A stretch of DNA of 64,000 nt from Schmidtea nova (taxonomy: Eukaryota): contig CM097882.1 in assembly GCA_044892505.1 (NCBI GenBank), positions 14,632,001-14,696,000 on the forward strand, written 5' to 3'. Under the pieces are notes generated by a model. The model worked only from the letters and a program-made list of their open reading frames with translations. It was not told the DNA's origin and did not search any database. Position numbers and translations under genes: made by a program. The number at the start of each line of letters is the position of its first letter. Position 1 is the first letter of the stretch. Of the stretch, positions 3,749-52,100 are shown one piece after another.

Positions 3749-5804
3749 TTCCTGGATACATAAGTCGTTCGGTAGCCGGTAGTTATGACAATGAGGGTAT
3801 TGCGATATTTGCATTGATGTTCACTTACTATCTGTGGATCAAAGCCGTAAAAACTGGCTCAGTTATGTGGAGCATATTTTGTGCGTTGAGTTATTTGTAT
3901 ATGGTGTCTGCTTGGGGTGGATATGTGTTCATAATCAATTTAATTCCACTGCACGTGTTCGTGTTACTATTAATGCAACGATATAGTTCCAGAATATATG
4001 TCGCATACACAACGTTCTATATACTTGGCTTGTTGTTCTCCATGCAGATTCCCTTTGTGGGATTTCAACCGATCAAAACCAGTGAACACATGGCCTCTGC
4101 TGGGGTTTTCGTTTTGTTACAGGTAAGGCGCGATAAATACCTAGATTTTGGATTTGATAACCGCTAATATTTGAATATTTCCAGGCATATGCTTTATTGC
4201 GATATCTGCAAACCAAACTCAGCCAAAACCAGTTTAGAAACTTCTTCGTTTGTGCGGTAACATTCAGTGCAGGAATCGTTTTCCTAACTGTTATCATATT
4301 GACTTATTTCGGAGTCATTGCTCCATGGAGCGGCAGATTCTACTCGCTATGGGACACTGGTTATGCCAAAATACATATTCCAATTATCGCCAGTGTTTCC
4401 GAACATCAACCCACAACTTGGGTTTCATTCTTCTTCGATCTCCATATGCTGGCTTGTGTGTTCCCAGCTGGAGTTTGGCTTTGCATTAAGCAAGTAAATG
4501 ATGAACGCGTTTTCATTATACTCTACGCAATCAGCGCTTCGTATTTCGCCGGTGTCATGGTGCGACTCATGCTTATTCTCACTCCAGTTGTCTGTGTTCT
4601 GGCCGCGGTCGTGTTCAATCGATTATTTGAAGTCTACCTAAAGGAAGATCAAATTCAATCTGCGTCATCTAACATCAATTCCGATCCAGTTGGTGCATTG
4701 AATAGCGTTGCTAACATCACCGCTACTAGCACCAGCACTGTTACTAACACTGCCACCGGCGCCATATCAACGTCGTCCACTGTCGGTACCAAAGATAAAA
4801 AGCTTTACGACAAAATCTCCAAACCGAAAAAAGGCAGCCAAATCAGCGCGAGTGGCGACAAATCAAAATCCAGCAATTCCGTATCCACTGACAACAGTTC
4901 CGATTCCACCAACACAGCCAGCGTCAGTGATGAATTCATGGGAATCAATATCAAAACCATCGCAATCCTCGTGCTAATTATCGTCATGTTTCTGTTCGTT
5001 GTCCATTGCACCTGGGTTACGTCGAACGCCTATTCGAGCCCATCGATCGTATTAGCCACTTACAATTCTGATGGATCCCGGAACATACTCGATGACTTCC
5101 GCGAAGCTTATTACTGGCTCAGTCAAAACACTCACGATGATGCTCGAATCATGTCCTGGTGGGATTACGGGTATCAGATAGCCGGGATGGGTAACCGGAC
5201 GACACTGGTCGACAACAATACCTGGAACAATTCCCACATCGCACTCGTTGGCAAGGCAATGGCATCAAACGAATCCGCAGCGTACGGAATCATGCAAGAT
5301 CTCGACGTGGATTATGTGCTCGTGATATTCGGTGGTGTGATCGGGTACTCCGGTGACGATATCAATAAGTTCCTGTGGATGGTCCGCATTGCCGAGGGGG
5401 AACACCCGAAGGATATCAAGGAGAGTGATTATTTCACCCCCAATGGCGAATATCGTGTCGATAGTGCCGCCTCACAGATCATGCTGAACTCGATGATGTA
5501 CAAGATGAGCTATTACCGATTCGGTGATTTGCAGTTGGATTTCCGCACCCCTCCAGGATTCGATAGGACGAGGAATGTGGAAATCGGCAGGAAACATTTC
5601 ACACTCGACCACATCGAGGAAGCCTACACGACAGAGCACTGGTTGGTGAGGATCTACAAGGTCAAGAAACCTTCCAATCGATTAGGACTCGATAAGAACC
5701 GCAAACGGATCCCGGTGTATAATTCCCGGAAAACTGTCAGCAACAAGCTCGGAGTGATCAAATCCAAGCCCCAAGTTACAAAGGGCAAATCGATAAAGAT
5801 ATAA
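3749..5804 (+). CDS. STT3B: Oligosaccharyltransferase catalytic subunit STT3, STT3B-like; 5'-partial; exons 3749-4122 and 4185-5804
   Basis: Acceptor TTTTAG at 3748, then (V)[16 protein letters not shown] 62-nt GT-AG intron (4123-4184) joins LLQ|AYALL in frame. Motifs SEHQP, WWDYG, DNNTWN and [11 protein letters not shown] are present; the [11 protein letters not shown] segment resembles the B paralog. Confidence 0.95.
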
Positions 5805-10546: not shown

Positions 10547-12024
10547 TCAGGATTGCTGTTGGCCAGCTGTCTGATTTGATTGAATTGCGGTGGATTGCCC
10601 AAAAATCGATGGAACAACGCTCTCAATCTAATAAAAACAATAATAGAAAACAATTCATAGGCGAGAAAACTAAACCGGTTTCCAAATCTGAATGATATTA
10701 TCATTGGCCGTGCTACCGATAACATTCCTCACATCGGGATGCCAACTGAAATCGGTAATTGCAGCGGAATGGCCGCCATGGACAAACTGCAGTTCCGGTG
10801 GATCTTCAACTGCAGCTGCGGCTTGCAACCTCTCACTGTCATGGACAACATCAATATCCCACAAACAAATCGTCCTCGACGCTGCACTGCAAGCCAATAC
10901 ATTCGATGCATGAGGTGACCAACGGATATTCCCCATTGATTCGTTGTTGTTTTGATTGGACAATGAGTGCAATTTCACCGAGAGATTCCTCAAGTCCCAC
11001 AACGCAACAGTTCCATCATCACTCGACGTAGCAAACACAAATTGAGAAAACGGTGATCCAGCAATCGATGTAACAGTTGATTTGTGAGCGATTATTGAAT
11101 GACTCGCTCGTGATCGATTGCGGCTGCGAATATCCCAAATTCCAATTGAACAGTCAGTGGAGGAGGAAAGGAAAACTGTCGGTATTGTTGGCCACCAAGA
11201 TACGTCGGTAATGGTTCCAGTGTGACCGTTGAATAATCGATTAACGTTCTGATAATTATTATCCGATGTTCCATTGCCTGCGGACAGTAAATCCCACATT
11301 GCGATGGATTTGCCATCTCCAGCTCCCAAAAGGCACCCGGTTTCAGTGAGATTCCATGAAAGAATACCATTTACAGTTGAAAATCCATTCAATTTAAACA
11401 ACGGCTTGGTGAATGTATCGGGAATCGTGGCGAATTCTTCGGCTTCCTCATCGGTAATTCCATACGATCGGTTTTCTGTGTCATAGATATTGATGGAATT
11501 GCTCGATGTTGTGGCAATTATTTGTGATTTCTGGGGCATATGTCGAGCTTTTGTTATAGCATTTTGATGGATTATTCGTTTCTGTAATTCGATCTTTCCC
11601 ATTCCCGATTTAAATGTTCCAAATGCTGAAAAAGGGAGAGAAAAAATACAATAATAAATTGTCCAAACTGTTTATGAATACTTACGAGTGTCAGTATCGA
11701 TATCATCTTCACTTGGTAAATATACATCAGCTAATAAAACATGATTTCTATCGGAATCAGTTGTTGAGCCAAGTAATAAACGAGATTTAACAACTGTTCC
11801 GTTTCTGATAGTGCTCGGCAGCCACTCGAATGTGAAACTAGGCCAGTGCAACGCATGTGTCATTACCATGTCGTATAAAAATGAGACACATTTTTTCCAG
11901 TTTTTGTAATCATCATTTAAAATTCTTTCCTCTGATTCATCTACATATTCTTTTGGGTTTGATATAATAAAAATATTGAAAAATAAATAAATATATATTT
12001 TTAAATATTACCTTTGCTCAACAT
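10547..12024 (-). CDS. Divergent RBBP4/RBBP7 (RbAp48/MSI1/HAT2)-like WD40 histone chaperone; predicted exons 12024-12012, 11949-11686, 11625-10676, 10627-10547
   Basis: Spliced N-terminus [49 protein letters not shown], WD repeats, and EDPPELQFVHGGHSAAITDFSWHP near the end. GT-AG introns of 62, 60 and 48 nt keep the frame. The last exon is less certain (alternative stop at 10670). Confidence 0.88.
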
Positions 12025-15652: not shown

Positions 15653-16398
15653 TCCAGGTGAATAGCCCAAACATCCATTATCACTTCATCTCAACTGGGG
15701 AACAGTGGCTTGGCCAAGGGCAAGGTGTTATACTAATGATATTTGATTTATAATAATGTAGTTTATCTGAATTTATAATTCTAATATATTCATAATTAAA
15801 AATTGATACCACATATAAACGTAAAGATGATTTCCTCCATTAATGTCTTTTCCATTATAAAAAATGATCTGCGCAAGAATATTTTACTCGTCGTTCGCCT
15901 TCACTCTCACAACAACTGTCATCTTATCCGAAAACGCAAGAAAATTGGAAGCTAATATTGAAAAGAGAATCGTTTGAAATAATGCTCAAAGCTGGTATAA
16001 TGATCACGAAATGAAACGAAAATTTTTTTTCCAGGTGAATAGCCCAAACATCCATTATCACTTCATCTCAACTGGGGAACAGTGGCTTGGCCAAGGGCAA
16101 GGTGTTATACTAATGATATTTGATTTATAATAATGTAGTTTATCTGAATTTATAATTCTAATATATTCATAATTAAAAATTGATACCACATATAAACGTA
16201 AAGATGATTTCCTCCATTAATGTCTTTTCCATTATAAAAAATGATTTGCGCAAGAATATTTTACTCGTCGTTCGCCTTCACTCTCACAACAACTGTCATC
16301 TTATCCGAAAACGCAAGAACATTGGAAGCTAATATTGAAAAGAGAATCGTTTGAAATAATGCTCAAAGCTGGTATAATGATCACGAAATGAAACGAAC
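15653..16398. repeat. Near-identical tandem direct duplication of about 370 bp (15653-16021 and 16030-16398)
   Basis: Both copies start TCCAGGTGAATAGCCC and end GAAATGAAACGAA, with only a few differences. Confidence 0.9.
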
Positions 16399-16836: not shown

Positions 16837-18095
16837 AAATTAGTATTAATTTTTAAAATAAAATATATATTTTAAATTCTATTATAGTCAAAAAATTTAA
16901 ATCGATTAAAATTTTTAAATTTAAATAAATTAATCTTAAAAGTATAATATTCTTTTATTTTTATACAAAAAAATATTTTTTTAAAGAATATATTATAAAT
17001 AATTTCATATTTATAAACAACAGAATGATTGAAAACGAAATCCACAATCCCCAATTGAAAATGCTCTAAAACTCGAGTACAGAAAAGACGGTCAGTCTTG
17101 TCCAAAGTATGTGGCAATACGCCCATGACATTTGAAAACTTAAACGAGTATAGAACACAAATCAAAAGAAGAAAATAAACATCATCAACAACCACATCAG
17201 TTAATTTACTTAAACCGAAAAAAATGAGGCAAACACATGGACTCAAAACTCTCACACTCACATATTCACAAACAACGATATGACTGAAAACAACGCTAAA
17301 TCCCATTAATTGACTCCGCTCTGAAACTCGAATACAGAGAAGACGGGCAGTCTTTTCCAATGTTTTGGGATTTCACCCATGACGTTTGAAAATATAAACG
17401 AGAACAGAGCAAAGAACAATACAGAAAACTTAGAATCACCAACAATCACATCAATTAATTCATAAACAATAGAATAAGAGAAGGAATCAGCACGAGTGTA
17501 AACCTCATCTGTATTGTTCTTTGCTCTGTTCTCGTTTATATTTTCAAACGTCATAGGTGAAATGCCACATACATTGGAAAAGACTGCCCGTCTTCTCTGT
17601 ATTCGAGTTTCAGAGTGGAGTCAATTAATGGGATTTAGCGTTGTTTTCAGTCATATCGTTGTTTGTGAATATGTGAGTGAGAGTTTTGAGTCCGTGTGTT
17701 TGCCTCATTTTTTTCGGTTTAAGTAAATTAACTGATGTGGTTGTTGATGATGTTTATTTTCTTCTTTTGATTTGTGTTCTATACTCGTTTAAGTTTTCAA
17801 ATGTCATGGGCGTAATGCCACATACTTTGGACAAGACTGACCGTCTTTTATGTACTCGAGTTTTAGAGCATTTTCAATTGGGGATTGTGGATTTCGCTTT
17901 CAATCATTCTGTTGTTTATAAATATGAAATTATTTATAATATATTCTTAAAAAAAATATTTTTTTGTATAAAAATAAAAGAATATTATACTTTTAAGATT
18001 AATTTATTTAAATTTAAAAATTTTAATCGATTTAAATTTTTTGACTATAATAGAATTTAAAATAAATAATTTATTTTAAAAATTAATACTAATTT
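16837..18095. repeat. Long inverted repeat: arms 16837-17425 and 17508-18095, 82-bp spacer; made of Penelope-like GIY-YIG and 3'-tail remnants
   Basis: Mirror ORFs 16872-17360(-) and 17677-18060(+) encode nearly the same peptide. Each arm has two degenerate GIY-YIG-like segments (FKFSNVMG...LDKTDRLLCTRVLEH; LEKTARLLCIRVSE). Confidence 0.85.
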
Positions 18096-18199: not shown

Positions 18200-19523
18200 T
18201 TGGATTGGCGTGTGTTGTTAATTATTTTAGTGNNNNNNNNNNNNNNNNNNNNNNNNNNNNNNNNNNNNNNNNNNNNNNNNNNNNNNNNNNNNNNNNNNNN
18301 NNNNNNNNNNNNNNNNNNNNNNNNNNNNNNNNNNNNNNNNNNNNNNNNNNNNNNNNNNNNNNNNNNNNNNNNNNNNNNNNNNNNNNNNNNNNNNNNNNNN
18401 NNNNNNNNNNNNNNNNNNNNNNNNNNNNNNNNNNNNNNNNNNNNNNNNNNNNNNNNNNNNNNNNNNNNNNNNNNNNNNNNNNNNNNNNNNNNNNNNNNNN
18501 NNNNNNNNNNNNNNNNNNNNNNNNNNNNNNNNNNTTTAATTATTTTGGCAATATGTTTGTTAACTATGTCGTTGTTTAAAAAAGGGTATGAAATTATATA
18601 GCATCTTGTTCATATAGCGGAGGCGGTTCGAATGACAACATTGATACTTGAAATTTTTAAAATTTTTAATTTTTGGTCCAAAATTAAATTTTTTCGACCA
18701 GGCAACTTAAAAATGGTACCACCGTGTGCGTCACTGAAATGCAGAGCGAACGATTCCACTTTTAACCTTGGTACTTTAAAGTATTTTTGTTTTTGTTTCA
18801 AAATTTTATTTTTTAATCGGACACCTTCAAAAATAGTATTATTGTGTGCGACACTGAAATGCCTTGCGAACGATACCAAATTTGACCTTGATACTTGTAC
18901 TTTTAAAATTAAAAAAAATTATTTAAATTTGAAATGAGTTATCGATGACGTCACTTAATTCAAATTTGAAATGAGTCATCAACGTGTCATAGAGTGAGTC
19001 ATCGATGAGTCGTAATGGTGAGTTATCAATGTGATGAGTCATCGATGAGCCATCGATTTAAAATTTTAAAAAAACTTCTCAAAAAATAGCAGAGTTAGTG
19101 GTGAGTCATTAAAATCAAAAAAATTTTCAAAATAATCAAAATTGAGAAAGTTTAAAAAAATTACTTATTTTTCGATGAGTCATAAAAATTTCGGACGAGT
19201 CATTCATCAGTATTCGATTATTTAAATAAAAAATTTTAAAAAAAAACAGAAAATTTTTCGAAAAAAAGTATGAGTCATCGAAGACTAAAAAAAGTTTTTT
19301 AAAAAAAATTTGTTAAAAAAACAGAATATTTTTCGAAAAAAAGTATGAGTCATCCATGACTCATCGATGCGTCATAAAAAATTTTGAAAAAAAAGTTTTA
19401 AAAAAAGAGAATATTTTTCGAAAAAAAGTATGAGTCATAAATTTCTTTTTACCCCGGGGTTCTTTGTTCGTTATTTTCACGCCCACGTATGTCTTTGTTC
19501 CCAGCTCTACACATTTACCTACT
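18200..19523. mobile_element. One terminus of a Maverick/Polinton-derived element (family related to 32625-37506)
   Basis: Ends ...ACACATTTACCTACT (reverse complement starts AGTAGG). It has a dense ATGAGTCATCGATGA array (18930-19440), a junction AAATTTGAAATGAGT(T/C)ATCGATGACGTCA shared with 37306-37335, and TTATTTTGGCAAT satellite-like sequence beside the N gap. Gypsy RT follows immediately. Confidence 0.75.
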
Positions 19524-26299: not shown

Positions 26300-27400
26300 A
26301 ATCTTTTCATATTCGTTCAACAACTCTTTTTCTTAATTTCCGAACCTTTGTGCCACAATTCTCTAGTATATATTCAGTTTTCTCATAATCTTCATAATCT
26401 AATGCTATTGTAAACGGGTTTAATTTGATTTCAATTTTTTTGAGTTCTTTTCCCAATCGTCGTAATATACATCTTAACTTTTCTCTATATCTTGATTATT
26501 CATACATATGACCTTATTGCATGGATAATATTTAATTTACTATTTCTATCAATTTCAATTTCTTCTATTAACTTCAATTGTCTGACAATTTCATTTTCAT
26601 CTCCTTTACTCAAAATCTCTTTTAATTCCCTACAAATTTTCTGTGACTTATCTTTTATTGTTTCATTGTTTCTACTAATTTACGCTATCTGAATTTTAAT
26701 TTTATTCTCAGGTTTATGACCACAATCTATTAAAATTTCATCATCATTTAAACTTCTATTTTTAAATTTTACTTCCGTTATCAATTTCTAGCAATTCTTC
26801 TCCACTCTACTTTTAAACTCTTACGCATTCTCCTATTTCACAACAAATACTCATTCACACCAATAACAAAAAAATCTAGCCGTTTTCTCTTGGAACAATT
26901 TCCAAAATATTTTCATTATATATTTGGTCTCAGTTTTATCTTTTGAATTTTCGCTATGATAATCAGCCCTTTTTTCAATTACACTTTTCAATTTTTGTCT
27001 ACTCATCGGCATTTGGCTCAATTTCTTTAACCATGTCATTATTTTAGATGCTTCTTTTACTTTTGATTCTATTAAAATTTTATGCTCGACATAATCATTT
27101 TTTTCAGCTTCTAAGTCACCATTTGCTACTTCCTTTATTATATCTAACTCTGACCGTTCTGATTGCTGTTCACACATCATATGATTATCAATTTCTTCAT
27201 TTAATTCAAATTTGCCCATTAATTGATCCAATCGTCAACCCGTTTGTTTAATATCTTTTTCAATTCTTTCATTACCATCGTCTAGTTGTACAAAAGCCAT
27301 GTTATCAAATTTTGATTTATAATTTTTAAATCTGATCTTCTTTAATATCGGTCTTTGAAATTTTTTATTATTCTTTGGGCATAATCTAGTCATGTGTCTT
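26300..27400 (-). pseudogene. Decayed intronless virus-like ORF(s), probably Polinton accessory genes
   Basis: Lys/Glu/Ile-rich reading frames with stops (ORF 26851-27231 ends in a CxxC: FFCYWCE). They are collinear and co-oriented with the adjacent ATPase. Confidence 0.4.
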
Positions 27401-27409
27401 TAACCTATG

Positions 27410-27996
27410 CATGAGTGAAATTGAATTTGCCCTTTGGAGATTTACTCTGTCTCTCTGTGGCAATTGTGACGTTGACGGAGATCTCGATCTTGCAAAACAA
27501 TTTCGAGAAATATGACCTTTCCTATCTTCAGATATTCTTGTCTTGCAAGAAAATATATAACCGTTGCAACTCTTGGGTTTTTAAAAATAACCAGATAATG
27601 TACATTTAAATTACGTTTTCGATGATTTCCACCTTGATGGAAAAGATATTGTATTATGAATATAACTGTACCTCCAGCATGTCTAGAAATCTTTGAAAAT
27701 AAATTATTAAATTCTTTTCTTTGTTGGCTTCTTGAAATAAATCATCAATTATGATGAAGTCTTTCTTTTTTCAAACTCTTTGTTCAATCTTTATCAAACC
27801 CTTTGATTATTTTCATTTTGACTATGCAAGATTCTGTCTGTGTCAAACCATTTTCAGTTTCAGAACCTTGATGCCAATATATTTGATTAAATTTTTCAAC
27901 AAATAAATTTGATTGTAACAATTTACATACAAAAAGCGTTTTACCACTACCACTAGGTCCAACAATTTGGTAAACAGCATCATTTTGCAACTCCAT
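27410..27996 (-). pseudogene. Polinton/Maverick DNA-packaging ATPase (A32/FtsK-HerA-like), frameshifted
   Basis: Walker A GPSGSGKT, Walker B FIIIDDL (second frame), then SRH...FIIQYLFHQG, LNVHY and FKNP...LARQ, the motif order typical of Polinton ATPases. Confidence 0.85.
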
Positions 27997-29614
27997 TTCA
28001 ATATAATAATTTGAAACTTTGTTTATACATTTAAATTTACTTGTTGAATACATTGATTTAAAAAATTAAATTTTTCAGACAAAAAATGCCAAAGAAAGAA
28101 CCGGGCACACTGCCCCCATAAGGTGATCCAACCAAAAACTGAGTAACCCCATAAAAAAACTATGATTTCTGCACAAAAATTAACATTTTGCACATTTTAG
28201 AATTTAAAAATCAATAGTTGCACTTTTAAATAATGTGCAGAACTTTTTAAACATACTGACACTTCAAAATAATAAAAAGTTATACTTAATTATTTGTTTG
28301 CACTTTTTTTGCACTTTAAATTCAATACGATTTTTACATTTGTTTTTAAACGAAACTTTGGAACGAGATTTCGATATATTGGTTTGACCAAAATGAAAAT
28401 ACTTTACAAATATAATGTGTCTCGTCATTGCCTACATCTTTTGTCTTGGATGTTTTCTCAAATCTATCTTAAAAGTCGTATATTTCTTTAAACGAAACAT
28501 TATTACACGATTTTGGAACATGAGGGTTGAGAAAAATAAAAGGTTTTTAAAGCTTAAATGTGCGTCTTGATATGATTTACAACTTTTGTCTTAGAAGTTT
28601 TCTCTTATCTTTATTATATTTCCTTCTGTGCTTATTTAAAAAAGATTTTAGGGGGTAGTGATAGGGGGTACTCTCAATAATAATTATAAAAATAAAAAAA
28701 AACATGTGCGTGATAACTTATGGTGAATCGGGGGCTCACAAAATTTCAAAGTGATTTTTTGACGACTTTCTCACCTCCTATTAAAGGATTTTCAACACAA
28801 AAAATTTTCAGTGCGATAAAATCTACCTAACTGCAATTAGAAAAATTAAAAAAGTTTCTTTGCACTTAGAAAAGAATTGAAAAGGACAATTTTTACAAAT
28901 TTTTCACTGTTTTCACTTTTTTGTGTTTTTGCACACTTGTTACAAAACATCCTTCAACACATAAAATGTGAAAAATCAAAAAATCAGTAATCTAAAATTT
29001 AAACAAAAAATTTATGGAGGGGGAGGGGGAGAGGGGCTATGTGCTCAATAACTCATGGTGAATCGGGTGGAGGGTCTCACACCCCCTATTCCTCTGAAAA
29101 TTTAATTTAGTAGTTGACTGCAAAAATAGAAGAATCATACTAAACAACTTCAACAACTCAGCCAAAAAAAACAAACAATTTAGCAATTAAATCAATTGTG
29201 ATATTAGGGTACGATGAAACAAAAACAGATAAACAAAACTTGAACAAACCTAATGAAATTATAAAAATCATACAAACTGTACCGAATATAACCAATAAAT
29301 TAACGGCAAATGGTGAAAGAAAATGCATAATGAACACTCAATAATTAACAACGGAAATCCAGTCCACGCAAAAGTCAAACGACTAGATAAAAGAAAACTC
29401 GAAATAACTAAGAAAATATTCGACGATGTGTTAAAAAACAAAATCGTCACACACTCAAATTCAAATTAGTCATTATCCCTCATGGTTAAAGAAAATGAAA
29501 ATGATGAATTGCGAGTTTGCGGAGACTACATAGAATTAAATAGCACCACAACAGCCAATAAATACACAATCCCAATTATAAATGACATTATAAACAGGTT
29601 TAACAAACCAAAAC

Positions 29615-31527
29615 GATTCCCTATCATTTGGTCGAACATCAGGTGGTCGAAGTTTACTTGGTTGAAATTCGTTTCGTCGCTGTTCATTTGGTCGAGAATT
29701 CATATAGTCGAAATTTATATATTCAAAATTCATATAGTCGAATATGTGTGGTTTAAGTGACGATAATTTAGTAGATATTAGTTTAGGATTTAAAACTTTA
29801 ACTATTTAATTTAAATTAAATAGTTTCCAAAAATTAGTTTCCAATAATTTATCCCATACAAAATGTCGAAATTAAACTTTGTCATTAGTAGTAAAGGAAA
29901 AGTATGTATTTGAAGGCTATTTATACACAAAAGATAAAGAAGTAAACGGAAAAAAATATTGGCAATGTGAAATAAGAAGCTGCAACTCAAGAATGCATAG
30001 CACGGGCGATGTTATTGTAAGAACACCAAGTGATCTTCACCAGCATTCTCCATCTTGTGATCGTGTTTCTGCAGCAATTGTGGCTGGACAAGTACATCGA
30101 AACGCATTAGATTGTGAGAGTACAACCAAAAACATTGTACAACAAGCGATGTCTCAGGTACCTGTCGTTGTTGCACCTGCGCTGGCTTCAACTTCACCAT
30201 TATCACAAATTGTAAGAAGAAAACGAAAAGCAGCACTATCTTATGAAGACACAGAAACAGAGCTTCATGAAAGAATTATTGTTCCAAGGAAGCTTCAACG
30301 CACATGCGACGATATTGAATTCTTGCGATTTTCTTCAGAATAAATGATTTTATTTGCGTTTCCTCTTGGAATAGATTTGAACAGAATAGAACGGAATTAG
30401 TTTGCAGATGGAACATTCTATGTAGCTCCAAAAGAATATACTCAGCTCTGCACCATTCTTGTTCTACTTGGAAATTATGAAACTATCGCGTGCGTTTACG
30501 CTCTTTTAAAGAATAAATCAAGGGAACCGTATGCTGTCATGTTTCAGTTTTTGCGGGATTTGAATCCGGATAAACCCTTAAAACCCGCAAGCATCACCGT
30601 AGACTTTGAACAAGCACCTATGACAGCATTTAAAGAAACATTCCTAGACATCGAGATACACGGATGTTTCTTCCATCTGTGTCAAAATATTTGGAGACGA
30701 ATTCAAGAATCTGGTCTTCAGATCTTGTATGTTTCAGAGGCAGAATTTGCATTGAAGACTCGATGTCTAGCAGCAATCGCATTTTTACCAACGGAAGATA
30801 TCATTCGAGGATTCGAACTTTTGACACATGACGAAGATTATCCGGATGAATTAGACCAAATAGTCGATTATTTCGAATCAAATTACATCGGTAACATCGG
30901 CCAACGTTCCACAAGAAGACGACCGAATTTTCCCCATTCTATGTGGTCACAGTATGAACGAGTTAAAAATAGCCTTCCACGAACGACCAATTCACTAGAG
31001 GGGTGGCATAACGCACTGAAAGGTGTCATCTAAAAAGCACACCCGTCAATGGCAGCATTCGTAACTAAGCTACGTCTAGAAGAGTAAACTGTAGCACGCA
31101 AAATTGAAAGAGACATTGCTGGTCATCCTAAGAAATAAGACGAAGAAATACGAGGCCGTCAACGCTAGAATAAAGCTATTGGTGGATGGATATAATTCGA
31201 ACAATATTATGCAGTTTCTGAGAAGCATTGCTCATAACATCGCGTATTGAATGAATTACTTTTGTACTTTTGTACTGTTTTTACTCTTATGTATTTTAAA
31301 TACAAAATTTTTATTACTTTTTTATCATATATTTGTTTTATTTTATGAATAATAAATTTCGACAAAGTGATTTTCGACTTGTTTGTGTTTTGACCAATTG
31401 ATCTTACACGAAATGAAATTCGACCAAATGAACTTTCGACCAAAAGAATTCGGCGAAATGAACTTCGGCGAAATGACGTTCGACGAACTGATCGATTCCC
31501 AATCATTTGGTCGAAGATCATTTGGTC
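29615..31527 (+). mobile_element. MULE (Mutator-like) element with decayed FLYWCH-MULE transposase (about 29863-31246)
   Basis: 9-bp TSD AACCAAAAC / AAACAAAAC; subterminal TTTGGTCGAA / TTCGACCAAA repeats. Peptide FEGYLY...YWQC..RSC...H.H, FADGTF, VDFEQA, HGCFFHLCQ, RTTNSLEGWHN. Confidence 0.9.
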
Positions 31528-33082
31528 AAACAAAACTACTCAGAAAAATTGACTTAAAAAATGCCTATAATCAAATTTGTGTCCGAACAGAAAACATAAA
31601 GAAAACAGCAATCATCACACCTATAGTCCTTTTCGAATAAAGCAGAATCCAATTTGATTAAAAAACACTGCGGCAAATTTTCAACACTTCATGGATCAAA
31701 TACTACAAATTCAACAAAATACAGTTGCATATTTAGAAGACATTCTTATAGCGTCAGCAACCAATGAAGAACACATTCAAAACATAAAAAGCGTATTCGA
31801 AATACTTAACAAACATGAGTTAAAAATTAACATAAAAAATGCGAATTTTTAAAGACAGAAATAAAATATTTGGGACATACACTAAACTAAACGACAACAA
31901 AGCCCTTAGAAGACAAAATTAAAGCCAATTAAAACTACCCTTTACCCAAAACAACAAAAGAGTTAAGACGTTTCCTCGGAATTATCAACTTCTACCACAA
32001 ATACATATCAAAATGTAGTGAAATGTTAGCTCCTTTGAATGAATTGAACAAAATAAAGAGAAACATTAAAATAAATTAGAACGAGGAACTAATAACGGCT
32101 TTCAAAAAAGCAGAAGAAAACCTGAAAAACGCAAGTATTCTAAGTTGTCCTAACCAGAAATTACCGTTCATAGTCAACACAGACTGTTCAGGATCAGCAA
32201 TGGGTGGAACAATTTTTCAAGAAGAAAACAATGGGAAAAAAACACATAGCTTTCTTTTCAAAGAAATTAAAAACACACCAAATGAGATACTCCACATTTG
32301 ATAGAGAGTTATTAGCGTTACATGATACGATCAGACACTTCCAATATCTACTTGAAGTAAAGGAATTCGAAGTGTCCACTGATCACAAACCATAATTAAA
32401 CGCAATGAACAAGAAAAACCCTTCACCAAGACAAATACGACAATTAAATTATATTTCACAATTTAATTGTAAAATAAACTATATAGCAGGATCAGCTAAT
32501 ATAAGTGCAAACACACTATCAATAATAGAGTTTCCAAAGATGAACTCATTAAAACTGGAAGAAATAGACGGTATCTGGTACGACACAACAAATGACAACA
32601 ATAAAAGAATCATCGTACCACCAAAGTAAACAGAAGTGTGCACCATGAGTCATCGCTAAACAAAGGAAATGACGTCATCGGTACCCCCGCCCCGCCCCTG
32701 ATGACTCATTTTTTCTTTGTCATGACTCATCGATGACTCATCACATGACACATCGATGACTCATCACATGACGTCATCGATGACTCATTTCAAATTTTAA
32801 ATTTGAATTTCCAAAGGTCAAATAAAGTCAAACCTTCAAACAAGGGTATCATTCGAAAGGTCTTTTAAAGGTCTATACAATGGTCATACCTTCGAAGGTG
32901 TATGGTGGGTGCTCAACCTTCAAAGGGTGCAAAACCTTCAAACTTTTTCAAACCTTATAATATATATATATATATATCATTCGAAAGGTATTTGAGTGGT
33001 AAGTATGTTGGCCATACCCTCAAAGGTTTATGGTGGGTCTTTAACCTTCAAAGCGTGCAAAACCTTCAACCTTTTTCAAACC

Positions 33083-33153
<71 letters not shown>

Positions 33154-33376
33154 TTCGAAAGGTATTTGAGAGGTAAGTATGTTGGTCATATCCTCGAAGG
33201 TGCGTGGTGGGTGCTCAACCTTCGAAGGGTACAAAACCTTCAAACTTTTTCAAATCTTGTGTGTAATATATCATTCGAAAGGTATTTGAGAGGTAAGTAA
33301 AATGGTCATACCCTCGAAGGTTTATGGAGGGTCCTTAACCTTCAAGGGGTCAAAAACATTCAACCTTTTTCAAACC

Positions 33377-33435
<59 letters not shown>

Positions 33436-33777
33436 TTCGAAAGGTATTTGAGAAGTAGGTATGTTGGTCATACCCTCAAAGGTGTATGGTGGGTCCTGAA
33501 CCTTCAAGGGGTCAAAAACCTTCAAAATTTTCAAACATTATAATATATATATCAAACAAAAGGTAATTGAGATGTGCACACAATGGTCATACCTTCGAAG
33601 GTCTATGGTGGGTGCTCAACCTTCAAGGGGTCAAAAACCTTCAAATTTTTTCAAATCTTATAATATATATATCAAACAAAAGGTAATTGAGATGTGCACA
33701 CAATGGTCATACCTTCGAAGGTCTATGGTGGGTGCTCAACCTTCGAAGGGTGCAAAACCTTCAAACTTTTTCAAACC

Positions 33778-33848
<71 letters not shown>

Positions 33849-34089
33849 TTCAAAAGGTATTTGAGAGGTAAGTAAAATAGTCATAACCTCGAAGGTTTAT
33901 GGAGGGTCCTTAACCTTCAAGGGGTCAAAAACCTTCAACCTTTTTCAAACCTTATAATATATATATATATATATCATTCGAAAGGTATTTGAGAGGTAGG
34001 TAAGATGGTCATACCCTCGAAGGTGTGTGGTGGGTGCTAAACCTTCAAGGGGTCAAAAACCTTCAAATTTTCTCACACAAAGATTTCTC

Positions 34090-34236
34090 ACATGTTCAAT
34101 ATGTAATATCAATAGAGTTGGCATTTTATATTTACCTTGTGGACATGTCATTATTTGTTCAAAATGTTTAAAAAATATTGATAAGTGTGAATCTTGTGGT
34201 ATTAATATTGATGAATATCATGTGATATACATATAA
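34090..34236 (+). pseudogene. C-terminal IAP/MDM2-type C3HC4 RING finger remnant inside the Maverick
   Basis: CSIC-x11-CGH-VII-CSKC-x6-CESC followed by a 12-residue tail and stop. It is fused directly to the last subterminal repeat unit. Confidence 0.85.
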
Positions 34237-34329
34237 TGTCGTACAAAATATATGTATTTTCATTTAATTTATTTTTATCATTGGCTAAGGGAATGAACTT
34301 TGTGATTAATTATTAGTCTATTTTTTTTG

Positions 34330-36330
34330 TCTTTGTTAACTTGGCTTGCAACTGCCATGTCTTTGTTAATCTGACTTGCTAACAATACATGTCTTTGTTA
34401 ACTTGCATCTGTATTGCAATGTCTTTGTTAACTTGCATCTGTATTGCAATGTTTTTGTTAAAATTGCACATGAATTGTAGTGTCAAAATAGGTAGGAAAA
34501 TAAATATATATTACGTTATGGTAGTGTAATTATTTTATTTTGACATCTTGAAGGTTTGAAAATATATACACACACACATCTCAAATATCTTTCGCATGAT
34601 ATTTATATAGTTTTAAAAAATTTTGAACACTTGAATATTTTTTATTAACTTGCGTGTATGTCTTTGTTAACTTGTATCCACATTGCAATATCTTTGTTAA
34701 CTTGCATATGTATTGTTAAGGTGTTTTGGCATTNNNNNNNNNNNNNNNNNNNNNNNNNNNNNNNNNNNNNNNNNNNNNNNNNNNNNNNNNNNNNNNNNNN
34801 NNNNNNNNNNNNNNNNNNNNNNNNNNNNNNNNNNNNNNNNNNNNNNNNNNNNNNNNNNNNNNNNNNNNNNNNNNNNNNNNNNNNNNNNNNNNNNNNNNNN
34901 NNNNNNNNNNNNNNNNNNNNNNNNNNNNNNNNNNNNNNNNNNNNNNNNNNNNNNNNNNNGTTAATCAGGCTTGCAATGTCTTTATTGACTTACATCTACA
35001 TTGCAATGTCTTTGTTAACTTGCATATGTATTGCAATGTCTTTGTTTCGTTGCACATGGATTGCAATGTGTTTATTAAGGAATTTGGCAATGAAATGTCT
35101 TTGTTAAGAAATTTGGCAATGAAATGTCTTTGTTAAAGAATTTGGCATTGAATTGTCTTTGTTAAGGAATTTGGCAATGAAATGTCTTTGTTTAGTTATT
35201 TTGGCATTGAAATGTCTTTGTTAAGTTATTTTGGCAATGATATGTTTTTATTAAGGAATTTGGCAATGAAATGTCTTTGTTAAGGAATTTGACAATGAAA
35301 TGTCTTTGTTTAGGTGTTTTGGCAATTAAATGTCTTTCTTTAATTATTTTAGCATCAAAATGTCTTTATTATGGTATTTTGGTAAATGAAGTTGAATTGA
35401 AGTTGAATGAAGTTGAATTTTAATTAATGTTCGAATAATAAGCTTTGGCAGATAAAAACCATCACAAAAGATGTTCTGATACTATATGTCCTGCTAGTAA
35501 ATGTTCTGTTCGTGTCTCTGTTTAGTTATTTTGACATTGAAATGTCTTTGTTACGTAATTTAAAATGTCATTGTTAAGAATTTTGGCAATGAATTGTCTT
35601 TGTTAAGGAATTTGGCAATGAATATTCTTTGTTTAGTTATTTTGGCAATGAAATGTCTTTTTTTAGTTATTTTGGCATTGAAATGTCTTTGTTAAGTTAT
35701 TTTGGCAATGATATGTCTTTGTTAAGTTATTTTGGCAATGATATGTTTTTATTAAGGAATTTGGCAATGAATTGTCTTTGTTAAGGAATTTGGCAATGAA
35801 TTGTCTTTGTTAAGAAATTTGGCATTGAATTGTCTTTGTTAAGGAATTTGGCAATGAATATTCTTTGTTTAGTTATTTTGGAAATGAAATGTCTTTGTTT
35901 AGTTATTTTGGCATTGAAATGTCTTTGTTAAGTTATTTTGGCAATGATATGTTTTTATTAAGGAATTTGGCAATGAAATGTCTTTGTTAAGGAATTTGGC
36001 AAAGAATTGTCTTTGTTAAGAAATTTGGCAATGAATATTCTTTGTTTAGTTATTTTGGAAATGAAATGTCTTTGTTTAGTTATTTTGGAAATGAAATGTC
36101 TTTGTTTAGTTATTTTGGCATTGAAATGTCTTTGTTAAGTTATTTTGGCAATGATATGTTTTTATTAAGGAATTTGGCAATGAAATGTCTTTGTTAAGAA
36201 ATTTGGCAATGAAATGTCTTTGTTTGGCTTCTTAGTATCGAAATGTCTTTGTGTAATTATTTTACCAATTAAATGTCTTTGCTGATATTGCACATGGATT
36301 GCAATGTCTTTGTTAATATTGCACATGGAT
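34330..36330. repeat. 29/30-bp minisatellite array inside the Maverick
   Basis: Units GTTAAGGAATTTGGCAATGAAATGTCTTT (29) and GTTTAGTTATTTTGGCATTGAAATGTCTTT (30), with a GTTAACTTGCATCTGTATTGCAATGTCTTT variant at both edges. N gap at 34734-34959. Confidence 0.95.
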
Positions 36331-38022
36331 TGCAATGTTTCTTGATGACTCATATTTGTGTTAAAAAAATTTGTGTTAAAAAAAAATTGAACACATACAC
36401 ACATGAATATGACCATCATACTCAACTTTCAATTACCTTTTGTTTGATACATATAGTAAATAGTTTTGAACCTTGGACCCTTCGAGGGTCGACCACCTAC
36501 CTTCAAGGGTATGTCCATCAAACTCATTTATCAATTACCTTTTGTTTGATACATATATTACATAGTTTTAAAAATTTTGAACCTTGGACCCTTCGAGGGT
36601 TGACCATCATACTCAACTCTCAATAACCTTTTGTTTGATATATAACTTGTAATGTTTAAAAATCTTTAAAGGTTTTTGACCCCTTGAAGGTTTAGCACCC
36701 ACCATAGACCTTCGAAGGTATGACCATTGTGTGCACATCTCAATTACCTTTTGTTTGATATATATATATATTATAATGTTTGAAAAAGGTTGAAGGTTTT
36801 TGACCCCTTGAAGGTTAAGGACCCTCCATAAACCTTCGAGGGTATGACCATTTTACTAACCTCTCAAATACCTTTCGAATGATATATTACACACAAGATT
36901 TGAAAAAGTTTGAAGATTTTGCACCCTTCGAAGGTTGAGCACCCACCACACACCTTCGAGGATATGACCAACATACTTACCTCTCAAATACCTTTCGAAT
37001 GATATATATATATATATATATTATAAGGTTTGAAAAAGGTTGAAGGTTTTGCACGCTTTGAAGGTTAAAGACCCACCATAAACCTTTGAGGGTATGGCCA
37101 ACATACTTACCTCTCAAATACCTTTCGAATGATATATATATATTATAAAGTTTGAAAAAGTTTGAAGGTTTTGCACCCTTTGAAGGTTGAGCACCCACCA
37201 TACACCTTCGAAGGTATGACCATTGTATAGACCTTTAAAAGACCTTTCGAATGATACCCTTGTTTGAAGGTTTGACTTTATTTGACCTTTGGAAATTCAA
37301 AAATAAAATTTGAAATGAGTCATCGATGACGTCATGTGATGAGTCATGTGTTGAGTCATGTGATGAGTCATGTGATGAGTCATGTGATGAGTCATCGATG
37401 AGTCATAACAAAGAAAAAAATGAGTCATCGGGGGGCGGGGGCGGGGGTACCGATGACGTCATTTCCTTTGTTTAGCGATGACTCATGGTGCACACTTCTG
37501 TCTACTCACCAAAGTTCTGTAAATATTACCTACAAAATACCACAATGCCTATCACCCAGGAAACAGAGCCACATACGAACTTTTGCATACAAAAGTCTTT
37601 TGGCCTTATTTTAGAAGCGACGTAAAAACGTTCGTAAAAATGTCAAAAGAACAAAATAATAAAAAACAATTTAAAACAGTATTTGTAAAATTTCCAAGTG
37701 CGGAAACGTTCAAAACAATACATTTTGACATCGTCGATCCTCTACCCCAAACAACAAGCACAAATACTTGCTAACAATAATTGATCGTGAAACAAATTGG
37801 TTTGAAGCCATATACATAAACGAAATATCTGCAGCAAAGATTTTCAAAAAACTAGAACTAAATTGGTTCGCACGGTATGGTTGCCCAAAAACACATATCG
37901 CCGATCATGGTAGACAATTCGAATCCGAACTTTTCAAAGAGCTTTGTAACAAGTACAATATTACAAAAATTAGAACAACTGCTTATAATCCACAATCAAA
38001 CGAAAAAGTGGAAAGATTGCAC

Positions 38023-38641
38023 CAGTGGCGTACCTAGGGTAAATAGCGCCTATAGCAAACACCAATCTTGCGCCCCTACCCGACGATAGGTTACTTACGT
38101 TTTTTTTCTAAAAAACTACTTTAGAATTGGGTAAAAAAAGCACACAAGTTAAATCTATTAACTTTTTATTACAAATTTATCTTTCTTGCTTTAGCTGACG
38201 CAAATTGTTTAATTATATTATCAAAGTCAATTTCTTGGGTCATTTCTCGTTCTATGCTAAGTAAAGCAAGATCACATAATCGACTTTGGCACATCAAGGC
38301 TCTCAAATATGTAAGTATAAATTTTCATTTGCTAAATGATCTTTCGCAACTGGCAATAGAAACCGCGATTGTCAGCAATATTTGCAATGCTATACACATA
38401 TTGGGAAAAACGTTTTCATCTCCATACTGAACTATAAAATTAAGTAATTGTTCGGGGCTTGATAAACAAAAAACGAATGCGTGCTTTTTCCTACGCAGTT
38501 TTTTAATACACATATTTATATCTATAAAAATATTTTTTTAATTTTCATTTGCGTATTTATACGTTAGGCGCTTTTTCGCGCCCCCTTCAGTTGGCGCCTA
38601 TGGCACGTGCCATGCCTTGCCATATCCTAGTTACGCCTCTG
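38023..38641 (-). mobile_element. Internally deleted hAT element
   Basis: TIRs CAGTGGCGTACCTAGG / CCTAGTTACGCCTCTG, exact 8-bp TSD GATTGCAC. Minus-strand dimerization-domain remnant FPNMCIALQILLTIAVSIASCERSFSK. Confidence 0.92.
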
Positions 38642-47394: not shown

Positions 47395-47867
47395 TTGAAG
47401 TGTGCAGATCCAAATTTGTGTGTATTGACAAATTTGAAAATAAAGATTATTGTGTTGGGTTTTCTTCATTGTTATTAAAGAAAGAACACAGGAGTCAAAT
47501 ATCAACCGACTATTTGTTAATAAGCCAATAGATTTTAAAAATGATAAGTTATAATAATTGAAAGGTAAATTCCATTGTTTTATAATAAATTATTATTTAT
47601 TTTAGATTTATCAAATTCTCACCAGGAATCAGCCAAAATCATACAAGTGGTAATTTTATACCATGTTGTGTATTGTTTTTATTAAATTGATGTGTTTATT
47701 AAAATTAAATACAAGTTTCGGATCAGATAAAAAAATGCCCATTTATAGATCAGGTAAAAAAAATGCCCAAAAATTTTTATCATATATAGTGACGATATTT
47801 AGATTAATATTTGTTTAAATATTACAGTTTTAAATAGAATATAATTTTGGAAATAACGTCTTATATT

Positions 47868-49130
47868 ATGACTAATAATGGAAATGTTACTGGCGACCAC
47901 GCCGAAATCGCAGCTATTACAAGATCACAACAAAGGCAGAAAATTGTCGAATCTTTGCCAAAAAATATTCAAGAATCGATTTACCCAGTGATAAATAAGT
48001 TTTTTGGAGGAAAAGAAGAAAATGCAAAGGACTGGCTTGAATCTATTGAAGAATTTGTGACGATAAATTCGCTCAATTTAGGAGCAGCATTCGATTTATT
48101 ATTACACGGAGATGCAAAAGAATTATGGATGGCCTTTAAGGAGACACTTAAGACTCCGGCTTCAGATCAAGAGGTAAAAGGTTGGTTTATTTTAAAATAT
48201 GTAAAATCCAAAAGTTTTTTACAAAATATCGAAGACATGAGTCTGATAAAGCAGAGGTCGGACGAAAGGTTTGAAAATTTTATAATCAGAGTGAGGAAAT
48301 TAGTCCGTGAAGTTCTTTCCGCAAATCAAACGGAAGACATGATTGTCAAGGATATTGTTACAAAACGTATGTATTCAGAAAAAGTTAAGGATGCAATTGC
48401 AATGAACCCAGAAGTATCTCTCACAGAAATAGAGAAAATGAATGTAAACTTTGAAAATAATTTACATACAGAAGACACCAGAGAGATATTTGCACTGGCA
48501 GATAATAGGAAACAATCGTCATATGCATCTGTAACAAGAAATAAAATCCCAGTAAGGCAGAATGTTCACCCAGTGATTAGACCATCAGTTCCAGAGACTA
48601 ATCTGTATGTCAGTGATAAAAGAAATTACGACAAAAATGGCAATAGACCACATTTCACTGAAAGAAGGCGAAATTCAGAAAGTTTATTGGTTAATGAGAG
48701 ACCCAATAGGCCTATGGTTTCTATGAAACATATTGCAAGACGAGTTTACAACAAAGCGAAAGGGTTTCCGGAACCAGAATTGCGACCCTTACAACCCGGT
48801 CAATGTTATTGTTGTGGCGAATCAGGTCATATTCGGAACAATTGTCCTTTAAGCAAATGTTGTTTAATATGTGGTAAAAATGATCATTTTTTTAATAATT
48901 GCCCTCTATTAAGAAGTAATAATACAAGAAAAATCCACTGTATTCAAGAAGAGAATGATTTAGGAAATCTGACTTATTCGTATGAAAACCTTGAGAATAA
49001 TGGCACGTCAGAATCTGAAGTAAATGAAATAGGATCGATTACAGGAGGTCATAGAAGATATAACAAAGAACGTCCTTTAAACGAGATACGCTCTATGGCA
49101 AACATTTCGTCTGTGGAGTCGTTGAATTAA
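47868..49130 (+). CDS. Gypsy Gag with two CCHC zinc knuckles
   Basis: Open frame from ATG 47868; capsid-like WLESIEEF and ERFENFIIRV segments; CYCCGESGHIRNNC and CLICGKNDHFFNNC. Confidence 0.9.
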   Translation: MTNNGNVTGDHAEIAAITRSQQRQKIVESLPKNIQESIYPVINKFFGGKEENAKDWLESIEEFVTINSLNLGAAFDLLLHGDAKELWMAFKETLKTPASDQEVKGWFILKYVKSKSFLQNIEDMSLIKQRSDERFENFIIRVRKLVREVLSANQTEDMIVKDIVTKRMYSEKVKDAIAMNPEVSLTEIEKMNVNFENNLHTEDTREIFALADNRKQSSYASVTRNKIPVRQNVHPVIRPSVPETNLYVSDKRNYDKNGNRPHFTERRRNSESLLVNERPNRPMVSMKHIARRVYNKAKGFPEPELRPLQPGQCYCCGESGHIRNNCPLSKCCLICGKNDHFFNNCPLLRSNNTRKIHCIQEENDLGNLTYSYENLENNGTSESEVNEIGSITGGHRRYNKERPLNEIRSMANISSVESLN

Positions 49131-52100
49131 ATGTGAAGAACACAGAAAACCGAAATGTTATGATGTTCAAGAAGACGGATGGAAGGTGGTGGAGTTTTGT
49201 TCAATGATGTGGAAAAGTGATTGAGATGTTGTGGGATACAGGTGCATCGGTTACGGTAATGTCAGAGGCCATATGGAGAAAGTGTGGCAGTCCAGTTTTA
49301 AAACCGTTGGATATTGCGCTTAGAGGTGCGTTTGGAAATAAACCGATATCATGCTTAGGTGATTTTATGACTTCGATTGTTTGGAATGAATTGTGTCAGA
49401 AAGTAAAGGTAATTGTGGTTAGAGATATAAGTCCAAGTTTTGTGGGTGGAATGAATTTGATTTTAGCTTTTAAAATAAAACTGGTGCCAGATACATCAAT
49501 TGCATTAATCGATTCAGATACGGTTGGTGTTAGCTACAGTGATAAAGAACGATGTCAAAAAGCGCTGGATGTTTTTGGACCAAATCCAAATCCAAAACTG
49601 GTGGAGTTAGTAACCATGTATAGTTCGATCTTCATGGCATCGGATTTTGATTTAGGTTGTACTAGTTTAGTTACTCATACTATAAAAACGTCGGGAAATC
49701 CAATAATTCAAAATCACAGGCGCATCGCAATGCAAATGGAATCAAAAGTGGACGATATGATTATGAAATTATTAAAAATGGGCATTATCAGGAAATGCCA
49801 AAGCCCATGGAACTCACCTACGGTCGTGGTAGGTAAAAAAGATGGATCAATCAGAATGTGTCAAGACTTTAGGAAAGTCAATGAAGTTACTGAAAAATTC
49901 AGTTTTCCAATGGCGGACTCCCAAACAATATTCGATTCTTTGTCCGGATCTTCAGTTTTTTCATCTCTAGACTTGGGGCAGGCATATTATCAGGTATATG
50001 TTGATGAGGCGTCTCAGTTAAAAACAGCGTTTTCTACAAAGAAGGGACAGTTTTGCTACAATCGAATGCCATTTGGATTATCCACAGCTCCAGCAACTTT
50101 CCAAAGACTTATGCACATATTATTTGATGATATTTTGTATAACGGTGTTGCAGCATATTTAGATGATGTTCTGATATATGGAAAAAACTATCGAAGAACA
50201 CAATAGAAATTTGGAGGAAGTTTTCAAGCGAATTAAATTAGCGGGGTTAAGGATCAATCCTAAGAAATGTAGTTTTTATAAAAGTGAATTGATATTCTTG
50301 GGGCATAAAATTTCAGCAGAAGGTATATCCACGAATAACAAGATGATAAAAAGAATTATTGAGGTTGAAATACCGAAATGCAGTAAACAACTACGTTCAT
50401 TTTTGGGATTAGCAAATTATTATAGCAAATTTGTTCCAAATTTTGCTGAAATAGCCAAACCGTTATATGAAGCTACAAAGGGACATGAAAAAGATATTAA
50501 ATGGAATGACGAGTGTGAGGAAAGTTTCCAAAAACTTAAGCATGCACTATCGAGTGCACCAATATTGGCGTTTCCAAATAAGGTCGATTACTTTATTTTG
50601 GATACTGATGCGTGTTTTAGCGGAATTGGTGCTGTTCTAAGCCAAGTTCAAAATGGTTGTGAAAAAGTCATAGCATATGGTTCAAGACTTTTAAGTGCTC
50701 ATGAGAAAGGATACTGTGTGACTAGAAAAGAATTATTAGCAATATACGAGTACGTCTTATATTTTCGGCATTATTTATATGGAAAAAAATTTTGATATAC
50801 GTACGGATCACAAGGCTTTAAAGTTCTTAAAGTCAACTTCGAAACCAATAAGTCCACAATTCCAAACATGGTTGAGTGAGTTGTCTGGTTATGATTTTGA
50901 TTTAAAATATAGGAAAGGTGAAAATCATAGTAACGCTGATGGACTATCGAGGATATTACTAAGTTATTGCTCACAATGTCAAACCGAACACGAAGAAGGA
51001 AAACTTGAGAAGAGCCGAATAAGATTTTTGAACGTGATTACTTCAAGTAATTTAAATATGCAGGTATATATTGAGAATCAGGAAACAGATAATTTGCTGT
51101 CTACAATAAAGAAATATGTACTAAACCCGAGTCCCGAGATACCTCACTTGATTCGGGATTCACCTTATTCCAAAAGACTGGATCAGATATTTGTAAAAGA
51201 CAATCTGTTATTAATAGTAAATGATGATAAGCAGAAGATAATAATTCCGCAGAAAATGGTGTCACAAGTCGTACAGCATATGCACAAAGAACTCTGTCAT
51301 TTAGGAGTTAAGAAAACAACAAATTATATGAACGATTATTTTTTTTGGATACACATGGTAGCCGATATACGAGATATTATAAAAAAATGTGATGTATGCA
51401 TGAGAAGGAAAGTATTGACAAGTAAGACAGCTGAGTATTTAATTCCTAGGGTAATAATGAGTTCGATGGAACAAATCGTAATCGATATTGCTCATATGAA
51501 AGAAACCAGAAACCGTAACCGTTATTTGGTAGTAATAATTGATCAGTTCAGCAAGATGGTTAGTTTAACGCCTACTCAGAACCAAGATGAAAAGACAATA
51601 TATCGGGTACTTTTACACAATTGGATATACAAATTCGGTAAACCAGCTTACATTGTTTCGGATAGAGGTAAAGTTTTCGAAGGAAGTCAAATCAAAGGGT
51701 TAATGGATAATTTTAACATCGAATGGATATTTACCTCACCATATGATCATAAGTCTAATGGTTTAGCAGAACGGGTAATACGAACGGTTCGTGATATGAT
51801 CGTGACATTTCTGAATGATGGGCAAACTGGAGGGTGTTGGGATGACATCATGCCAAAAATTGAATATTCCCTGAACTCAACAACACAGAGTTCTACGGGA
51901 TTTTCGCCAATGGAAATACTATTTGGAAGAAAGGTTAATATACATGGAAAGAATTCATTTATAGATCTTAATCGAGAACAAGTATTATTGACAGCACAGA
52001 ATAATATTAAGGTAGCGGCAGATAAAATGAGATCAAGAGATGCAGATAAGAAAATTCATCGGCATTTTGAGGTTGGTCAGAGAGTTCTAGTAAAAATGGA

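Follow-up and report, generated by a model that had tools for sequence, protein, structure and literature searches.

What kind of element interrupts the integrase of a decayed Gypsy retrotransposon in Schmidtea nova, and was it ever mobile in its present short form? The locus lies in a 64,000-nucleotide stretch of contig CM097882.1 (GenBank assembly GCA_044892505.1, forward-strand positions 14,632,001 to 14,696,000), which we call the window and whose own numbering is used throughout. The original prediction, drawn from the sequence alone, described a miniature non-autonomous Maverick/Polinton, a cis-only derivative that an autonomous relative would mobilize, and possibly package, in trans. 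A Maverick derivation, summed over the explanation we favor and two of its rivals, is likely, though the support for it is indirect. For the favored explanation itself, a defective Maverick/Polinton-derived insertion shortened by one large deletion, whose short form bears no sign of multiplication, our confidence is about even.

The insertion spans 32625-37506 (4882 bp) and is flanked by two plus-strand copies of CACCAA, at 32619-32624 and 37507-37512, a target-site duplication (TSD) located by sequence match and by a listing of all registers for TSD lengths of 2 to 12 bp, scored by terminal symmetry over 20 positions. The 6-bp register is the sole perfect duplication of at least 6 bp with symmetric ends (19/20), and a 6/6 match would arise by chance at about 5.5e-4 given the local base composition. 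The termini read AGTAAAC on the left and, as reverse complement, AGTAGAC on the right, with a mismatch at position 5; both the exact TSD and the AGTA...TACT ends put forward originally were thus recovered. The target is equally as predicted: the end of the Gypsy reverse transcriptase, RNase H and a linker lie to the left (31631-32618, plus strand, from domain matches), and the integrase zinc-binding and core domains to the right (37513-38019, plus strand; PF17921, E 1.3e-7, matching Pfam positions 12-48, and PF00665, E 1.3e-9), which places the insertion at the start of the decayed integrase domain. The Gypsy reading, said to resume across the TSD, is indeed colinear there; its frame, however, breaks within ~25 bp rightward, and further stops and frameshifts occur elsewhere.

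The predicted long terminal inverted repeats (TIRs) are also present. The inverted arms are ~0.8 kb long (~830 bp left, ~770 bp right) and 98% identical; in the core, over 32625-33381, 693 of 707 aligned bases agree, with seven indel blocks and a Jukes-Cantor distance of 0.020. Each arm begins with a terminal block. The left block (32625-32846, plus strand) has the AGTAA end and 11/23-bp tandem repeats, and within 32625-32800 it carries six TGA(C/G)TCA, two TGACGTCA and two GC-box-like motifs; the right block (37257-37506, minus strand) has the TACT end and 12-bp tandem repeats, with nine, two and two of the same motifs. We take these to be AP-1, CRE and Sp1 motifs, respectively. Such motif-rich ends resemble the inverted terminal repeats of adenoviruses and probably served the parent element as origin and enhancer; a literature search on the TIR motifs yielded nothing pertinent. 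Nearly all TGA(C/G)TCA sites of the window (25 of 26) fall within this element or within a second, diverged end at 18535-19523, described below. A search of prokaryotic genomes with a TIR 23-mer returned no matches.

Inward of the terminal blocks lie arrays of ~120-bp subunits, nine with (TA)n spacers on the left (32847-34075, plus strand) and, on the right, five clear ones followed by degenerate inner pieces (36407-37256, minus strand). A subunit anchor found five of the nine left subunits and seven on the right, allowing 35 comparisons. Three mirrored pairs are 97-99% identical, and the remaining 32 comparisons range from 66 to 88%; the next mirrored pair falls to 81%, and the true TIR therefore stops near 33450 on the left and 36740 on the right. 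By the boundaries set in this analysis, repeat-class bases make up 4097 of the 4882 (~84%). A single copy of this composition, with 2% divergence between its arms, does not define minimal cis elements, as had been proposed.

The assembled element encodes almost nothing. All 68 stop-free interior segments of at least 20 aa were scanned against Pfam, as were the longest frames in the arms; polymerase, integrase and capsid are absent from the assembled sequence, and among the interior segments a RING domain alone exceeded the cut-off. The longest frame, of 143 aa, is repeat-derived, and ATG-started arm frames of 99-132 aa are translations of repeats with no Pfam match. Matches of satellite frames to AcrF8 and DIKK (E 0.008, below the cut-off) were rejected, as was the sole Rfam match, mir-1277, which fell on a (TA)n run and reached 29.7 bits where the cut-off is 81. 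The label non-autonomous hence holds for the assembled sequence, which contains no Maverick core gene. Because pPolB and integrase, which are definitional for Polintons (PMC5499653), are lacking, we file the insertion as a probable derivative and not as a Polinton proper. It is not cis-only, however, since it retains coding sequence at 34075-34236.

This plus-strand segment is the 3' remnant of a C3HC4 RING gene (PF13920, E 2.4e-10), with 53 codons and a stop; all eight zinc ligands are kept and an in-frame ATG is absent. The search for relatives gave 328 at E <=0.001, of which 150 were listed. In the best relative, P0033 (198 aa), the C-terminal 54 residues (145-198) align at 57% identity, and the remnant covers only profile positions 109-161; the first 144 residues of P0033, the N-terminal part of the family, have no match anywhere in the window. 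Of the 150 listed relatives, 20 were domain-scanned, with preference given to those of high identity that matched over one stretch only. Of these, 17 have RING only, two have BIR domains and one a VWA domain. BIR domains occur in 10 of 15 longer relatives, and we therefore class the RING as IAP-type. P0033, P0037, P0049, P0060, P0077, P0099, P0124, P0127, P0128 and P0154 form a family of 110-200 aa with a C-terminal IAP-type RING, a common N-terminal motif and no BIR domain. These proteins are possibly a Maverick accessory gene family. Querying with P0033 for names or context recovered only P0033 itself among 64 candidates, and an Atlas search returned generic RING clusters only (0.86-0.90).

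The RING homology starts at 34075, exactly where the ninth left-arm subunit ends, in sequence free of N. A 9-nt direct repeat, TTTCTCACA, occurs twice, 15 bp apart, at this junction (34058-34098). The junction has no second copy in the window, which is a weak test of copy number.

Downstream of the RING remnant, repeat analysis identified a 29-31-bp satellite (34328-36338, plus strand) that keeps a single orientation to the left and to the right of an assembly gap of 226 N (34734-34959). An exact satellite 11-mer has 24 forward copies in the element, on both gap sides, and no reversed copy in the whole window; looser anchors number 45, with seven left of the gap and 38 to its right. Left of the gap, at 34568-34605, is part of a 120-bp subunit, oriented like those of the right arm. 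With this gap, which the original prediction overlooked, inside the element, the predicted 4.9-kb span without polymerase, integrase or capsid gene stands for the assembled sequence, and its length is an assembly estimate. The window contains five gaps, all of different size (153-836), which suggests that their lengths are estimates. At a duplicated segment (57128-57817 and 60701-61559), an N gap at the matching place is sized 153 and 309 N, so such estimates are rough. Most likely, the gap in the element holds only satellite, and the insertion is probably truly short. If a single deletion shortened the element, the core genes would have lain at the visible junction at 34075, in N-free sequence, and not in the gap.

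The favored explanation could have unfolded as follows. The parent would have consisted of a left TIR, core genes, a RING E3-ligase accessory gene, the 30-bp satellite and a right TIR, in that order, and a retroviral-type integrase would have made the 6-bp staggered cut. A single deletion with one endpoint in the inner part of the left arm and the other in the RING gene, which stood last before the right-end satellite, would have taken the core genes, either at the locus after insertion or already in the inserting molecule. The 9-nt junction repeat would fit end-joining or template switching, although this is speculative. The arms would have diverged by 2% since then.

How well does a Maverick parent fit? 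Intact vertebrate Mavericks measure 12.7-24.6 kb, with TIRs of 46-1447 bp and 6-bp TSDs, and carry (AGT)2 or (AG)3 ends that have been tied to jumping-back (PMC8097293); another survey gives 13-25 kb, TIRs of 100-1500 bp and TSDs of 5-8 bp (10.1101/2023.08.22.554363), and TSD, end and TIR features are also described in PMC8969392. The insertion shares the 6-bp TSD, the AG...CT ends, TIRs of several hundred base pairs, within the published 46-1447 bp, and an IAP-type accessory gene. Adintoviruses bear IAP homologs (PMC8502044; the accessible part of its supplement carries an IAP label and no 'RING'), and accessory regions flank the core, which supports a Maverick origin. It differs in its length of 4.9 kb against 13-25 kb, in having no pPolB, integrase, ATPase, protease or capsid gene (226 N of gap being unread), and in its end motif, AGTAG/AGTAA against a full (AGT)2, of which five of six positions match on the right and four of six on the left.

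That the copy was simply deleted is supported by the state of Mavericks elsewhere, 96% of vertebrate loci being degraded (PMC8097293), and by a neighbor: a 618-bp hAT-like deletion derivative (38024-38641) with an 8-bp TSD, GATTGCAC, and a dimerization-domain remnant lies within the same Gypsy integrase. A FLYWCH and MULE transposase remnant (29600-31540), with 15-bp tandem repeats near both edges, sits in the reverse transcriptase of the same Gypsy, and the locus is a nest of dead elements. Seen as a single deleted copy, the insertion is ordinary, defective Mavericks and N Polinton families being already catalogued, and its one use is to mark a Maverick lineage of the host.

Two further features of the window bear on this lineage. 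The first is the diverged end at 18535-19523 (plus strand), in which a satellite-like gap flank is followed by ~120-bp units, a TGA(C/G)TCA cluster, TACT and then Gypsy reverse transcriptase. It is 68-74% similar to the element over 90-163 bp and has nine TGA(C/G)TCA sites and 75-77-bp repeats; at ~30% divergence, it is not of the same family. A gapped alignment of its satellite-like flank reached a score matched by 3 of 1000 shuffles and 1 of 862 window tiles, which makes the satellite link to the element a moderate one, and the common right-end order suggests that in this lineage the satellite belongs to the subterminal region. Both ends seen (n = 2) adjoin Gypsy pol, so there may be a target preference. 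The second feature is a broken Pox_A32-type packaging ATPase (27445-28002, minus strand), whose best relatives are 61-75% identical in 24 of 32 matches; profile matches to ATPase occur in the window at 27526-28034 only. The surrounding region (26300-29090), a separate Maverick-like relic, also has unassigned frames downstream of the ATPase, among them 26854-27234, and on the upstream side weak repeats of ~140 bp. Alignment of the ATPase against prokaryotic genomes passed 2 of 53 candidate stretches, short partial P-loop matches that were not used. The relic shows that Maverick-type genes occur in the host genome.

Several observations weigh against the favored explanation. The full (AGT)2 motif is unmatched, and the window shows no autonomous element bounded by this TIR. 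Clean ends and a TSD are equally expected of a mobilized family. The RING family comes with no genomic context, and the position of its gene in the parent is itself inferred. The second end does not align with the element over its outermost 100 bp, an ungapped satellite score matrix missed its gap flank, and neither a partner end nor a TSD for it was found within the window. Likewise, no TIR was found around the ATPase relic, which is bounded by neither end. On balance, the claim of Maverick origin gains from the TSD, the AG...CT ends, the TIRs, the IAP-type RING, the related end and the nearby ATPase, and is tempered by the unseen autonomous element.

The short form could alternatively represent a multi-copy family, in which the deletion came first and the polymerase and integrase of an intact element then copied and integrated the shortened unit. 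We hold this tentatively, as possible but unlikely. In keeping with such a family, the element has kept its two ends and its TSD intact, and its RING remnant shows no decay; non-autonomous Polinton families are also known from zebrafish. In Polinton nomenclature, the suffix N denotes a non-autonomous element. Polinton-1N1_DR, -2N1_DR and -4N1_DR, which account for three of the seven Polinton entries listed for zebrafish (PMC9341512 supplement), are catalogued Maverick families with thousands of annotated fragments each; their consensus lengths are 15,469, 11,092 and 10,436 bp, in contrast to 4,882 bp and a single copy here. Polinton-N1A_NV is named in PMC11296320. A ~5-kb family that relied on an intact element for its movement would be half the size of the smallest zebrafish N consensus seen. 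Polintons that lack polB are described from insects, Pieris mannii among them, and are reported as active in butterflies; they are TIR-flanked and inferred to be still mobile; they derive, however, from a set of variants of at least 12 kb and still encode other polinton proteins (10.1101/2025.02.07.637071). The junction is single in 64 kb, weak though this test is, and the second end, ~30% diverged, belongs to another family; in Anolis, non-autonomous copies were not apparent (PMC3014272). Among open-licence papers, we found no report of a gene-less mobile Maverick family of ~5 kb, and Repbase or bioRxiv supplements may hold such a case.

Packaging of the short unit would be a further step and is less likely still; nothing in the window points to mobilization or packaging in trans. 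Intact sizes cluster at ~17 kb +/-10%, which the authors read as a constrained genome size (PMC8097293), and these sizes, together with the 10.4-15.5 kb of the zebrafish N consensus sequences, speak against packaging of 5 kb. The nearest model is provided by transpovirons, ~7-kb linear TIR-bounded DNAs found in helper virus particles (PMC5499653); unlike the element here, they encode a helicase and parasitize mimiviruses. A mobile mini-family would nonetheless matter. Mavericks have been argued to spread mainly by reinfection through particles (PMC8097293), and recurrence of the junction at many loci would bear on trans-complementation versus such reinfection. Mobility of a 5-kb form would favor a capsid-independent route and narrow the cis sequences: the terminal block with its bZIP motifs, the 120-bp subunits and the 30-bp satellite would mark cis origin and integration signals, and Mavericks would be able to spread inside a host genome without being of capsid size themselves.

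A non-Maverick transposon of the foldback type (Galileo-, Mutator- or hAT-related), with repetitive TIRs and a captured RING fragment, is improbable. Arms built of tandem subunits do have the look of Foldback and Galileo, whose TIRs are long and internally repetitive (PMC3573991), and a Maverick core gene is lacking inside. Other registers are present as well: the direct repeat is perfect over 9 bp, since the target goes on with AGT (chance about 0.017), and an 8-bp register matches at 7/8. Mutator and Foldback elements produce TSDs of 9-10 bp flush with the TIR ends, Galileo (P superfamily) produces 7 bp, and hAT elements have 8-bp TSDs and short TIRs. The 9-bp and 7-bp lengths misfit the symmetric ends of the element because the 9-bp register leaves a terminal symmetry of only 5/20 and the 7-bp registers 3-5/20. 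The 8-bp register has the same symmetry as the 6-bp one but requires a mismatch and gives G...C ends, which, with arms of ~0.8 kb, argues against hAT. The second end, too, appears to stop at TACT independently of the element.

An assembly collapse hiding the genes of a longer, possibly complete Maverick in the N gap is very improbable: the gap does sit in the satellite of a repeat-rich scaffold, the matching site of the duplicated segment was sized inconsistently, and six of seven Anolis copies are incomplete through gaps (PMC3014272), but five gaps of five sizes point to estimated lengths, the satellite runs on in one orientation across the gap, and the truncating junction lies outside it.

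The remainder of the window, which has ~30% GC, contains intron-poor genes for STT3, a divergent WD40 protein, presumably RBBP4-like, and an EF-hand protein (3727-5804, 10673-12007 and 63654-63998). A near-complete Gypsy (47788-52339) encodes gag, protease, reverse transcriptase, RNase H and integrase across several frames and carries, at 47788 and 52259, two direct repeats of 81 bp with the same sequence, unusually short for long terminal repeats. A 377-bp tandem duplication (15653-16397, 99% identity) is possibly an assembly artifact. A near-perfect 1.26-kb palindrome (16837-18095, 94%) contains frames that have no Pfam match and that, by eye, we take to resemble a GIY-YIG/Penelope-like end.

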